From sequence record OL631257.1: a stretch of DNA of 64,000 nucleotides; one strand, written 5' to 3'. The translations under genes were made by a program, and so were the position numbers. The DNA comes from Escherichia phage ECCR664. Below, in pieces: positions 5,037 to 15,603 of the stretch. How positions within the stretch are numbered: position 1 is the first letter of the stretch; each line of letters begins with the position of its first letter. The notes beneath the pieces were generated by a model, which saw only the letters and a program-made list of their open reading frames with translations, was not told the DNA's origin and ran no database searches.

Positions 5037-5318
5037 TTACTTATCGCACTTAGCAACATAATTAGGCATATCACAGAATACGGAGCGAGTAACTACTCGA
5101 CCCTTTGACCATGCTTCAGTTGCTTGTCCGGCAGTGCTATTAATATAGCTTGATTTGATATTCTCAATACCCTGAGAATGTGATGCATTTACCGAACCGT
5201 TGGAAGGCCCAGAAGACTGGTTACCACCAGCTCCTGCACTACCGCTGGCTGCACCCGTGGTAGCACCAACAGAGAACGCCATCATTACTGCGAATAAACC
5301 AATTACTAATTTTTTCAT
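5037..5318 (-). CDS. small secreted/periplasmic protein (signal peptide, Gly/Ser/Ala-rich)
   Basis: N-terminal MKKLVIGLFAVMMAFSVGA hydrophobic leader; 93 aa. Confidence 0.5.
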   Translation of the reverse strand: MKKLVIGLFAVMMAFSVGATTGAASGSAGAGGNQSSGPSNGSVNASHSQGIENIKSSYINSTAGQATEAWSKGRVVTRSVFCDMPNYVAKCDK

Positions 5319-8181: not shown

Positions 8182-8185
8182 TAAA

Positions 8186-8487
8186 TTAGATAGATGTAGG
8201 CTCTAATTTTATTTTCATGAACTCAGCAAATTGTCTGGCGGTTTTTATGCCTTGTTCATGACATTCAAATGCATCATCACAGGGACTATTTTTGTAATGC
8301 TTTGCCATATACTTATAGAATTTTTCAGAATTCTCGACATTTTGAATTTCAAACAAAGTATATACGTTTTTAATCCCTGATTCCATAAAGTTATCAAAAT
8401 ATGGGTCGATATGTGCAGTACCAACGATAGGAGTTGTTGCTGCAAAAACCCCAGCATCGCTATGACAGCTATCGCTCTTAAGGCCAT
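8186..8487 (-). CDS. rI: lysis inhibition regulator rI (frameshifted, two fragments)
   Basis: N-terminus MALRAIAVIAMLG and C-terminus …FMESGIKNVYTLFE…CHEQGIKTARQFAEFMKIKLE resemble T4 RI; fragments 8245..8487 and 8186..8386 in different frames. Confidence 0.75.
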
Positions 8488-8712: not shown

Positions 8713-8739
8713 ATATACCTCTTGGTTAGATATTAGTAT

Positions 8740-9319
8740 TTATAACAACCCTGTCAAATCATTCCAATGCTTCCGGCATAATGACACGTATCTATCAGTA
8801 TCACCAATTTCAATTTGACTGCCATCTGTAATTGGAAGTCCGTCTTCCGTGACTCTAGCTACCATTGTGGCCTTTTACCACAATGACAGACACCTTTAAG
8901 TTCAACAAGCTTATCGGCAATAGCCATTAATGCTTGAGAACCTTCAAATAGATTACCTTTAAAATCTGTTCGTAGTCCATATGCCATTACTGGCACATTG
9001 TATACGTCAACAATACGACTAAGTTGATACACCTTTTCAGTAGTTAAGAACTGAGCTTCGTCAACAAATACACAATGAATATCCTTTGTGCTGCAGCCCA
9101 TTTATAGAATTCAAAGATGTCCATGTCTTTTGTAATTATATTGGCATCCTGACGAATACCAATACGAGAGACTATTTCACCTTTTGAATCACGAGTATCA
9201 ATAGCCGGTTTAAGAACTAATACACCCATGCCACGTTCTTTATAGTTATGTGCGGCAGTAAGTAATGAAGCAGACTTACCAGCATTCATAGCGGCATATG
9301 TAAAAATTAAACTAGCCAT
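8740..9319 (-). CDS. tk: thymidine kinase (frameshifted in two places)
   Basis: [21 protein letters not shown]-loop; …VFVDEAQFL…CHCGK… as in T4 Tk; three collinear fragments. Confidence 0.9.
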
Positions 9320-9720: not shown

Positions 9721-9923
9721 GTCACCTTTAAGCAGTATTCTTCTACATGCTGTTTACGACCTTTCTTATCAATAAAGGTATATTCAACGAATGTTCCAAT
9801 GTAGTCTTTATCTACATCATGTGGACTATTAATTGGACATTTAGTACGACAAATGCGTTCCCATTGACGAATAATTACTGCCTTATTCTTTGGGTCGTAT
9901 GGATGTGGATAATGTATATTCAT
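9711..9923 (-). CDS. hypothetical protein ~70 aa
   Basis: ORF 9711..9938, likely start MNIHYPHPY. Confidence 0.35.
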   Translation of the reverse strand: MNIHYPHPYDPKNKAVIIRQWERICRTKCPINSPHDVDKDYIGTFVEYTFIDKKGRKQHVEEYCLKVTWL

Positions 9924-10417
9924 AATAATGGTTCCCAATCAACAATCACAATTTCTAGTTTAGTGGAATACGTATCTAAAATCTCTTCGATGATATCCCA
10001 GTTTCCGCCACCGATACCAGCACCAATTCTTGGCATATAAATTAAAGGCTTTGTTATCTTATTCTTTCCGAATTTATTTAATTCTATTATACAATTCATT
10101 AAAGCAGAGTACTCAAAATTAGGTCCAGGCTCAAACTGTGTATAAAGATTAAAGCAATAAGCTTTATGGGTCTTAAAATATTTTTCATAAACCGAATAAG
10201 TCCCGAGTTTAGATTCGTCTCCGAATTCGGTTTGAAGTTTATCGGCTTCCAGAATTTTTGGATAAGCCTTTGCTAATTGACCTGCTACACCAGCGCCCAT
10301 TGTATGAAAACAATTGCACCCATGAGCAATATTATTACCTTTAGAAAACAGGGCGACAATATCGCCCTTGATATAGTTTTTAATCACTTGCTGCAAGTCC
10401 TCTAGTATAAGAGTCAA
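9920..10417 (-). CDS. macrodomain protein, TARG1/OARD1/DarG-like (putative ADP-ribose hydrolase)
   Basis: YIKGDIVALFSKGNNIAHGCNCFHTMGAGVAGQ and MPRIGAGIGGGNWDIIEEIL resemble TARG1 motifs (…KGDLF…LAHCISEDCRMGAGIA… and MPRIGCGLDRLQW…), recalled from memory. Confidence 0.65.
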   Translation of the reverse strand: MTLILEDLQQVIKNYIKGDIVALFSKGNNIAHGCNCFHTMGAGVAGQLAKAYPKILEADKLQTEFGDESKLGTYSVYEKYFKTHKAYCFNLYTQFEPGPNFEYSALMNCIIELNKFGKNKITKPLIYMPRIGAGIGGGNWDIIEEILDTYSTKLEIVIVDWEPLL

Positions 10418-10727
10418 CTAGACGGTCCACCATAGAATTGCATGCTGCCTTATCTTTAGGTTCCGCCACCGAGCATTCTAATATTTGCCATTTTTTATAG
10501 TATCTTTTAATTAAGGTAGACGCCTTGAACCTACTAGACGCCCCATCTTTTTCTCCGTCTTTATACGCATATAACAATTTTTGTGAAAAATCTACTTTAC
10601 ACTCTTGACTTTTACCACAATAATCAGACGCCGTTCTGTTTGTATACTCCGTTACATCAGTATATGTAGTATTAGCAAGAGCGTTAAATGAAACCAAGCC
10701 AACTATTAAAGCTAACATTTTGGTCAT
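10380..10727 (-). CDS. secreted protein with signal peptide, 4 Cys
   Basis: MTKMLALIVGLVSFNALA leader. Confidence 0.45.
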   Translation of the reverse strand: MTKMLALIVGLVSFNALANTTYTDVTEYTNRTASDYCGKSQECKVDFSQKLLYAYKDGEKDGASSRFKASTLIKRYYKKWQILECSVAEPKDKAACNSMVDRLVDSYTRGLAASD

Positions 10728-11266
10728 TCTTTTATTTCCAGTAGTTTATTTGATTTAAGGTAATTAGCCTTTTCTAGGACTTCAGAAGCATATTTACTTC
10801 CAGCACTTGTCTTCCATCCCGCATTATATGAGGATATAGCTTTTCTTATATCCCCGTTATGTATATTTAACCAATAAGAAAATTCGATATAAGCCCATCT
10901 GGCTGAATTAGACCGCTTAGATAGCATTTTCTTAATTTGGGCATCAGTCATATTATAACCAAGCTGGTTAATTCTTGCCCTCATTGTTGGTAGATAGTTT
11001 TGGAACATTCCATACGCATGGTGACCTTTCTTATCTTTAAGATTAATACCTGCGGATGATTCTTGCCATAGTATTGCGGCCATTATGTATCCAAGTCCTT
11101 TCTTATGCATATTTTCATGCGTTTTAAATTTTCCGTCCTTAGAAAACTGTTCCCCAAACTGATAAGCATAATTCAAGTTATCGAGTTGGACATTACTAAA
11201 AGTATGCTCGGAGCTATGTGCTGATAACGAAAGAGCAAATAGACCAGCGAGTAGTGCTTTTCTCAT
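10724..11266 (-). CDS. secreted SLT-family lytic transglycosylase-like protein
   Basis: signal peptide MRKALLAGLFALSLSA; SLT motifs WQESSAG (catalytic E-S), GMFQ, YNAGW. Confidence 0.6.
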   Translation of the reverse strand: MRKALLAGLFALSLSAHSSEHTFSNVQLDNLNYAYQFGEQFSKDGKFKTHENMHKKGLGYIMAAILWQESSAGINLKDKKGHHAYGMFQNYLPTMRARINQLGYNMTDAQIKKMLSKRSNSARWAYIEFSYWLNIHNGDIRKAISSYNAGWKTSAGSKYASEVLEKANYLKSNKLLEIKE

Positions 11267-11274
11267 GTTTACCT

Positions 11275-11731
11275 CTAGATTTTAATCACTGCTTTAGAAG
11301 CTTTTCCTGGTAGTCGTTTACTGTTAATAATAGCCATTCTGCATTGAAGAGTCTTCATTTTGAATGCTGGATTTTCGCGACAGACTGTAAGTCCTAACCA
11401 AAGATTTCCGTCAGTTATTTCTAAACGGCCTGGGCGATATTCGACACCTTCGACAAAATCTTCATCAACATCTGGACGTGCCGGCATTGATAAAAATTCT
11501 GCAACTTCTTTAACATGATTTTTACTTTATGAAATAATTCAAAACGTAATTCTCATCTATTTCTCTCTGGATGGCACGATCTAAGAGATGTTGAGAATAC
11601 TTGATATGAAAGCCTGGTAGTCCAAGAGACTTTGCAGCATCTTTTATACCGGCATTTATTTTGCGGAACTCCGTTTCAAAGATTCGACGGAGTTTATTAC
11701 GGCGGATAAAAACGTCAGAATTGATAGTCAT
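11275..11731 (-). CDS. regB: endoribonuclease RegB (frameshifted)
   Basis: MTINSDVFIRRNKLRR…HLLDRAIQREIDE and …GVEYRPGRLEITDGNLWLG…CRMAIINS…LPGKASKAVIK match T4 RegB in two fragments. Confidence 0.85.
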
Positions 11732-11740
11732 TTTTGATTT

Positions 11741-11790
11741 CTCCTCTAGTTGACAGGTCTATAGTAACACATCTAGAGGAGAAGTAAACT
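11741..11790 (-). promoter_or_regulatory. early promoter motif with flanking inverted repeat CTCCTCTAG/CTAGAGGAG
   Basis: GTTTAC at 11784-11789 (minus); IR arms at ~11741-11749 and ~11771-11779. Confidence 0.5.
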
Positions 11791-14836: not shown

Positions 14837-15118
14837 CTATTTTTCTGAAGCGCCTGAAATATATTTTTCAAGACGTTGTTTCATCAGCGAGCCGTTCTTA
14901 GCGATTTCTTCCGGTTTATCACACATACGCAACAAGGCTTCAAGCTTAACGATATCACTGGTGCGCTCAAATTTGCGAGTATCTATCTTACTAGCAAGTT
15001 CAGAAATACGTGCTAATAGACTTTCAGCTTCAACCAAAGCTGCACCTAGCTTAGTTGCAAATGTGTCAGTAGCTTCGTTAAGAATAGATTCTGATAAAAA
15101 TTCACTATATGTTTTCAT
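14837..15118 (-). CDS. internal protein (IPIII-position) with capsid-targeting N-terminus
   Basis: [16 protein letters not shown]… N-terminus; immediately downstream of e. Confidence 0.6.
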
Positions 15119-15603
15119 ATATACGCTTTCCAAGTTCCTGTTTTAAATGTTGAGATTACGCGTTTCGCGCGATTAGGTGTCTGACGATACCATTTAGATT
15201 GGGCTAGATTTACTGCCGCTTCATCCCAACGTTTCTGTTGAAGCATACGAAGAGAATTAGTAAAACCGGCGACGCCTGCTACTCCCATTTGGAAGACCAT
15301 ATTGACCAATGCACATCGACGAACCGCGTCTAAAGAATCATACACCGGTTTAAGTTTAGCATTACCCAAGATTCCGCGAACGGCTTTATCAACATCTTCA
15401 TTAAATAGCTTTTCAGCCTCATCAAGGGTAATTGTACCGTTACATTTACGGCCGACCATTCTGTCAAGTTCAGCTTTAGCTACGGCTAAAGACGGGTTCT
15501 TTGTTACCAAATGGCCTATGCCAATAGTCCAAAAGCCTTCGGTGTCTTTGTATAAAGACAGTCTAAGACCTTCGTCATTACGAAGCATTTCAAATATATT
15601 CAT
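15115..15603 (-). CDS. e: lysozyme (endolysin)
   Basis: [15 protein letters not shown]…[12 protein letters not shown]…[25 protein letters not shown]… closely matches T4 lysozyme. Confidence 0.95.

Follow-up and report, generated by a model that had tools for sequence, protein, structure and literature searches.

What do two adjacent genes with putative export signals do in the early region of a T4-like phage, and do they belong to one system? The question arises at positions 10,380 to 11,266 of a 64,000-nucleotide stretch of Escherichia phage ECCR664 (sequence record OL631257.1), here called the window. The first-pass annotation of the window had proposed that the open reading frame (ORF) 10724..11266 encodes a secreted SLT-type lytic transglycosylase, and that the adjacent 115-residue ORF encodes a second secreted protein with cysteines. 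The core of that reading, an exported SLT-type enzyme and a second exported cysteine-containing protein, is supported by our sequence analysis. T4 vs.1 and vs have their Mosigvirus orthologs in these two ORFs, which lie in the conserved pre-replicative block regB-vs.1-vs-tk.4. We favour an explanation in which Vs.1 is an exported lytic transglycosylase and Vs is an exported protein coupled to it, and put the probability of this explanation as a whole at roughly 0.75. The main features are:

10724..11266, minus strand: vs.1 coding sequence, 180 amino acids, ortholog of T4 Vs.1, predicted exported GH23 / family-1 lytic transglycosylase
10380..10727, minus strand: vs coding sequence, 115 amino acids, ortholog of T4 Vs ("valyl-tRNA synthetase modifier"), predicted exported four-helix bundle with two disulfides
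10724..10727, minus strand: ATGA, in which the vs.1 stop codon and the vs start codon overlap, suggesting translational coupling

Both ORFs are found exactly where the first-pass annotation had placed them, on the minus strand. The window belongs to a T4-like coliphage of the genus Mosigvirus, JS09-like, with 96.7% identity to phage JS09 over 25 kb. The 1.7 kb surrounding vs.1 and vs are 98-99% identical at the DNA level to many annotated Mosigvirus phages, and a 98%-identical annotated record has the order regB, Vs.1, vs, Tk.4, tk.3 ... tk, rI.1, rI. The gene order of T4 matches (regB, vs.1, vs, tk.4). The 180-residue ORF shares 83% amino acid identity with T4 Vs.1 and matches phrog_600 ("unknown function") with E=3.7e-67; it is the vs.1 ortholog because of the shared gene order, this identity and this match. 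The 115-residue ORF shares 67% amino acid identity with T4 Vs and matches phrog_1256 with E=5e-35. Both genes are intact in the window and 99-100% identical to database copies, while NCBIfam has no family for Vs.1 or Vs.

The first reading had not recognised either ORF as a long-catalogued T4 gene, nor that the SLT similarity of vs.1 was already published, nor that the second ORF bears an annotation at odds with export. The enzyme gene is indeed separate from that of the endolysin e, which lies at 15115..15603 on the minus strand and matches Pfam Phage_lysozyme with E=1e-13. The placement in an early region also holds: published omics data assign T4 vs.1 and vs to the class early RNA / middle protein, with both proteins detected by mass spectrometry (PMC9697503 supplement), and the unit is pre-replicative.

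The enzyme class of Vs.1

The sequence of Vs.1 contains the motifs W67-Q-E69-S-S-A-G73, G86-M-F-Q89 and Y147-N-A-G-W151, which had been picked out as SLT motifs in the first reading. They are no product of chance, as their core residues are conserved: in an alignment of 54 homologs E69, S71, G86, Q89, Y147, N148, G150 and Y159 are invariant, and S146 is invariant or nearly so. The invariant residues match motifs I to IV that mark family-1 lytic transglycosylases, namely E-S, G-L-M-Q, A-Y-N-x-G and Y. Their positions in the window are:

11060..11062, minus strand: codon GAA of Glu69, predicted single catalytic acid/base, motif I (E-S); invariant (n=54), at the end of helix 59-70, paired with the glutamate of Slt70
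11000..11011, minus strand: GMFQ, codons 86-89, motif II (G-L-M-Q type); G86 and Q89 invariant, aligned with SGLMQ of Slt70
10814..10828, minus strand: YNAGW, codons 147-151, motif III (A-Y-N-x-G type); Y147, N148 and G150 invariant, followed by the invariant Y159 as motif IV

The AlphaFold2 model of Vs.1, built on the alignment, has a predicted local distance difference test score (pLDDT) of 89.9 and a predicted TM-score (pTM) of 0.83. In this model Vs.1 adopts the lysozyme-like all-alpha fold of GH23, and E69 is located at the C-terminal end of helix 59-70. When the Vs.1 profile is aligned by hhalign with the C-terminal domain of E. coli Slt, AILWQES is paired with AIARQES, so that E69 coincides with E505 of the precursor, i.e. 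E478 of the mature protein, and YGMFQ is paired with SGLMQ. Glu478 of mature Slt70 is the known catalytic residue. The proposed catalytic glutamate is therefore both invariant in a proper alignment and paired with that of Slt70.

Homologs of Vs.1 were found in 2052 phage records. Many of them are named "Transglycosylase SLT domain-containing protein" or alike in the databases, and several carry a precomputed match to PF01464. The Pfam SLT profile (PF01464) matches 49 of the 54 aligned homologs at E<=0.01, the best with E=1.3e-7. The family also has a conserved N-terminal segment of its own, with F23, Q27, N30, A34, Y35 and G38. The top matches of Vs.1 in the PDB, a metacaspase and the Sgm methylase, were weak and we rejected them as chance matches.

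Export signals and the vs.1-vs pair

The signal-peptide calls are based on a heuristic for the n/h/c architecture and on the conservation of that architecture. In such a leader the n-region is positively charged, 7-15 hydrophobic residues or slightly more make up the h-region, and the -3/-1 positions hold small residues. Two such leaders are predicted here:

11213..11266, minus strand: predicted Sec signal peptide of Vs.1, codons 1-18, MRKALLAGLFALSLSAHS, with likely cleavage between AHS and SE or between LSA and HS
10674..10727, minus strand: predicted Sec signal peptide of Vs, codons 1-18, MTKMLALIVGLVSFNALA, followed by N, with a classical A-x-A site

In the N-terminus of Vs.1, MRKALLAGLFALSLSAHS followed by SEH, the hydrophobic core is 13 residues long; there are also two positive charges, and the residues at -3/-1 are small. 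The clear signal peptide reported for this ORF in the first reading is thus recovered, and its architecture is kept in 53 of the 54 homologs, with 1-3 Lys/Arg, small residues at -3/-1 and an uncharged hydrophobic core that ranges from 10 to 18 residues. The single homolog without it has an N-terminal extension, resembling a mis-called start codon. The cleavage-type sites stand a few residues before a conserved motif of the mature protein, F-S-x-x-Q-x-x-N. The architecture is kept across the homologs and the sequence varies, a pattern that would be expected of a working leader. In the AlphaFold2 model the pLDDT is ~60 at residues 1-20.

Two other ideas about the location of Vs.1 were discarded. 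No conserved lipobox was found among the homologs, which speaks against a lipoprotein, and a virion-borne entry enzyme was rejected in view of the Sec leader and the early expression.

By the same heuristic only four of the 99 non-overlapping window ORFs of at least 70 amino acids look exported, namely vs.1, vs, rI and a 93-residue ORF. The rI product is periplasmic, with a cleavable signal peptide that has been shown experimentally (PMC8385771). The 93-residue ORF, at 5037..5318 on the minus strand, begins with MKKLVIGLFAVMMAFSVGA, has a Gly/Ser-rich mature part and belongs to phrog_2243 (unknown function); of the 99 it is the one protein, besides Vs.1 and Vs, that looks exported and lacks an explanation.

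For Vs the leader architecture is kept in all full-length homologs, and here too the sequence drifts while the architecture persists, as far out as the Acinetobacter phages. The window Vs has exactly four cysteines, C37, C43, C85 and C96, in agreement with the earlier description of an adjoining 115-residue exported-looking protein with four cysteines. They are invariant among the homologs, in the pattern C37-x5-C43 and C85-x10-C96. The AlphaFold2 model of Vs, predicted from a 5-sequence alignment, is a four-helix bundle (helices 14-37, 41-64, 69-85 and 90-114) with a pLDDT of 84.5, falling below 50 at residues 1-15. Each cysteine pair spans a helix-helix turn in the model, as one would expect if two disulfides form in an oxidising compartment. 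In one clade of Karamvirus-like contigs (L065-L069, L090) the A-x-A site is replaced by a lipobox, as the leader MKKLFVLLVVFALSGC ends in LSGC and is followed by K; these Vs proteins are predicted to be lipoproteins. Together the leader, the lipobox variant and the four invariant cysteines argue against cytoplasmic residence of Vs, as far as sequence can tell. Compared by sequence with the PDB, Vs matched nothing but an antibody light chain (E=0.27), which is noise.

Vs is harder to detect than its neighbour. BLAST-detectable homologs occur in 795 phage records versus 2052 for Vs.1, an exhaustive representative search among 1.8 billion proteins gave seven relatives, and a word-index protein search gave four. 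The wider Vs family was found via the ORFs downstream of vs.1 in related loci, followed by hhalign and a hidden Markov model (HMM). In Klebsiella phage JD18 and Acinetobacter phage PhT2 vs.1 is followed by an ORF of 106-108 amino acids with a leader and the same four-cysteine pattern, and hhalign identifies these downstream ORFs as Vs homologs with 97.9% (E=4e-13) and 82% (E=1e-5) probability, respectively. BLAST misses Vs in Jiaodavirus and in Acinetobacter phages.

With the HMM, a Vs-family ORF is found directly after vs.1 in 56 of the 70 IMG/VR loci with a Vs.1 homolog, Jiaodavirus and Acinetobacter phages among them, and in those 56 loci the junction lies between -8 and +7 nt from the vs.1 stop. 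Starting from Vs, vs.1 is immediately upstream in all 27 loci found, and Vs was never seen without vs.1. Vs.1 does occur without Vs, in Aeromonas phages, RB43-like phages, two jumbo-phage contigs, Kuttervirus and Felixounavirus. Vs thus appears to behave as an accessory partner of Vs.1, with predicted export signals on both.

In JD18 (L031, 2309..2701) and PhT2 (L032, 2282..2707) a third signal-peptide ORF follows the vs.1-vs pair; it is 130-141 amino acids long and belongs to phrog_4957 (unknown function). In PhT2, rI is located two genes beyond this third ORF. The vs.1-vs pair, the phrog_4957 ORF and rI together form a small cluster of periplasm-targeted genes.

Alternative readings and a possible mechanism

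Several observations weigh against the favoured explanation. The window Vs.1 scores 18.8 bits (E=0.0013) with Pfam SLT, below the gathering score of 21.3, so the profile check proposed in the first-pass annotation gives a clear result at the family level and a marginal one for the window sequence itself. The hhalign match of Vs.1 to Slt70 is weak taken alone (E=0.05), and no solved lytic transglycosylase in the PDB was reached by either the single sequence or the family profile. Since sequence matches to the solved enzymes are lacking, Vs.1 is, by its sequence, a divergent branch of the lytic transglycosylases. The searchable literature yielded no experimental work on Vs.1, either biochemical or genetic. 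On the side of Vs, the fold search returned only generic helical bundles, none informative. The occurrence of Vs.1 without Vs means that Vs is not required for the function of Vs.1. Finally, the classical label of Vs is that of a 10-kDa factor binding the cytoplasmic valyl-tRNA synthetase (ValRS) (Mueller & Marchin 1975/1977, as cited in PMC8076793). This label conflicts with the predicted export features, and the same discrepancy applies to T4 Vs itself.

For Vs.1 three other functions have to be considered. It might be a hydrolytic GH23 enzyme, either a muramidase resembling goose-type lysozyme or a chitinase-like one. Goose-type lysozymes combine a catalytic Glu with one or more conserved Asp residues, located after it, that position the hydrolytic water. 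In the 54 homologs E69 and E128 are the only invariant acidic residues, with none in the stretch after E69, and D78 of the window protein is variable. Without an invariant Asp after E69 the sequence favours lytic transglycosylase chemistry over hydrolysis, and we consider a hydrolase improbable. An N-terminal hydrophobic segment in which Ala, Gly, Ser and Leu abound, on a phage protein with a muralytic fold, could also suggest a back-up or signal-anchor-release (SAR) type endolysin, which an N-terminal anchor that is not cleaved would keep inactive at the inner membrane until lysis. In SAR endolysins this anchor is a transmembrane segment of ~20 residues, weakly hydrophobic and never cleaved off. 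The h-region of Vs.1 has 13 residues (10-18 in the family), too short for a membrane anchor, nearly all homologs have good -3/-1 cleavage sites, and the expression is early/middle, not late. Lysis of T4, classically the work of the endolysin e and the holin t, is moreover already explained by these two, and e is confirmed in the window; a SAR-type endolysin is accordingly a quite improbable reading. The sub-threshold Pfam score would fit a non-catalytic pseudo-enzyme that binds peptidoglycan, but the catalytic and substrate-binding motif residues are all invariant in phages of hosts from Escherichia to Acinetobacter and Aeromonas, which makes this reading very unlikely.

For Vs the alternative is the annotated one: a cytoplasmic 10-kDa protein that binds the host ValRS, with a meaningless position beside vs.1 and a hydrophobic N-terminus that is inefficient or unused as a leader. 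It has the classical biochemistry behind it, as cited in PMC8076793, and the annotation is uniform over the records and in phrog_1256. The predicted mature size of 97 amino acids (~11 kDa) fits a 10-kDa factor under either reading. On the other hand, the leader architecture is maintained in lineages as distant as the Acinetobacter phages although its sequence drifts, one clade has a lipobox, and the four invariant cysteines are set to staple helix pairs, which is unusual in a cytoplasmic protein. In addition, vs strictly adjoins and often overlaps the gene of a predicted exported enzyme, and His-tagged full-length Vs was insoluble in the cytoplasm (PMC8076793). The leader, the four cysteines and the adjacency are more in keeping with a partner of Vs.1 in the periplasm than with a protein that binds ValRS in the cytoplasm, and we regard the ValRS binder as a possible but doubtful description of Vs.

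In the mechanism that we propose, host RNA polymerase would transcribe regB-vs.1-vs-tk.4 early. The AGAGG sequence would serve the translation of Vs.1, and that of Vs would be coupled to it through the ATGA overlap. Both pre-proteins would be exported by Sec and cut by leader peptidase, and Vs would be oxidised to two disulfides, most likely giving a disulfide-stapled four-helix bundle. Vs.1 would be a small single-domain GH23 enzyme, free in the periplasm of the infected cell. Its Glu69, placed where a helix ends, would be the single acid/base that protonates the beta-1,4 bond between N-acetylmuramic acid (MurNAc) and N-acetylglucosamine (GlcNAc). Judging from the family, the C6-OH of MurNAc would then close a 1,6-anhydro ring, leaving 1,6-anhydroMurNAc ends. 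In this way Vs.1 would cut the host peptidoglycan from the periplasm within minutes of infection, with no need of either the holin-dependent endolysin e or the virion lysozyme gp5. Candidate purposes are a local loosening of the sacculus or wall remodelling, a contribution to lysis or lysis inhibition, and an effect on superinfecting phage. The block holding vs.1 and vs is dispensable for T4 in the laboratory.

The role of Vs in this mechanism is more tentative. In our working model it would act on or with Vs.1 in the envelope; it might bind Vs.1 or the substrate site and so restrain or direct the activity, although we would not expect this to be the likelier outcome. It is likewise conceivable, but far from secure, that modifying ValRS is not the main task of T4 Vs, and that this exported, disulfide-stapled four-helix protein makes up a conserved two-gene periplasmic module with Vs.1, as its inhibitor, regulator or targeting subunit. 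If so, the ValRS phenotype of the 1970s would have been assigned to the wrong ORF at the sequencing of the region, or would stem from a non-exported fraction or from binding after cell breakage, and the T4-like phages would have a third muralytic system, a regulated one, at work on the host wall from early infection.

The surrounding locus and comparison with known systems

Three further features of the block were located in the window:

11272..11276, minus strand: AGAGG, putative Shine-Dalgarno sequence of vs.1 judged from its position only, overlapping the regB stop codon
11761..11789, minus strand: T4-early-promoter-like site upstream of regB, GTTTAC, 17 nt, TACTAT, read by eye
9920..10387, minus strand: tk.4, macro-domain protein (Pfam Macro, E=2.5e-6), the gene downstream of vs

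The site at 11761..11789 is likely to start the regB-vs.1-vs-tk.4 transcript. It scores below the threshold of a consensus promoter scan, and the scan has nothing better on the minus strand. The same scan found nothing on the minus strand directly upstream of vs.1, with counts not above the shuffled expectation. Downstream of vs there is a terminator-like hairpin, AGGGCGATATTGTCGCCCT, at 10350..10368 on the minus strand, with an 8-bp stem including five G-C pairs, followed by GTTTTCT. It lies 12 nt past the vs stop codon, within the 5' end of tk.4, and might reduce read-through or make the regB-vs.1-vs message more stable. A GTG that overlaps the vs stop is probably the start of tk.4, a gene named "phosphatase" or A1pp in related phages.

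Compared with phages that are 98-99% identical, the window has single-base homopolymer deletions in tk (two), regB (two) and rI (one). The regB gene (11275..11731, minus strand), intact with 152 amino acids in the relatives, is split into ORFs of 69 and 70 amino acids by T5->T4 and A6->A5. This break is either a pattern of sequencing errors or the mark of a regB-defective isolate. The tk gene (8738..9319, minus strand) is broken by A4->A3 and A5->A4, and a near-identical phage has an intact tk of 193 amino acids. In rI (8185..8487, minus strand) T6->T5 falls just past the signal-peptide codons, so the listed 80-residue ORF at 8245..8487 is out of frame. The deletions in the three genes look like sequencing errors, and five of them within ~3.5 kb suggest systematic assembly errors in the window.

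The SLT similarity of the vs.1 family is in print, as Nolan et al. 2006 corroborated the PSI-BLAST matches of the 2003 T4 genome review (PMC1524935). Because this similarity was published in 2003/2006 the main finding is a re-discovery and not novel; Vs.1 as an SLT-type enzyme is an already known prediction. What is added here is firmer in-silico support, by the fold, the alignment of the catalytic residues and the conserved export signal. In the searchable literature, which does not include key older reviews, we found no discussion of the export signals of Vs or of a conserved vs.1-vs module, and no localisation data for Vs.1 or Vs were found in it. The main text of a preprint on a CRISPRi-ART screen of T4 does not mention vs.1 or vs. 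Reviews of the muralytic enzymes of T4 count e and gp5 alone, as does the abstract of PMC7650644 with e and gene 5. Beside these two, Vs.1 would be a third wall-cutting enzyme, predicted to be exported and kept in more than 2000 phage genomes, and its neighbour bears a 50-year-old functional label although its sequence features indicate another compartment.

Among known proteins the closest is T4 Vs.1 itself (UniProt P13311, Y06E_BPT4; phrog_600). It is alike in its position between regB and vs and in length (180 versus 181 amino acids), there is no difference of substance, and the window gene is the Mosigvirus allele. The family-1 enzymes of GH23 (Slt70, MltC, MltE/EmtA, MltF and small specialised ones such as EtgA; Pfam SLT PF01464) are more distant, as Vs.1 is too divergent for sequence profiles to reach their solved members. 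Vs.1 further differs from the family-1 lytic transglycosylases by its family-specific N-terminal segment, it is encoded by a lytic phage and made early with no known associated envelope machine, and it is predicted to be soluble, not a lipoprotein.

The 115-residue ORF has its counterpart in T4 Vs (UniProt P13310; phrog_1256), at the same position downstream of vs.1. Two other T4 proteins, Spackle (gp61.3) and RI, are like Vs small, helical, provided with a signal peptide and made before lysis, and those two act in the periplasm. Spackle inhibits the muralytic gp5 lysozyme (PMC7677548, PMC8385771), and its inhibition of a muralytic enzyme is the kind of role that we propose for Vs.

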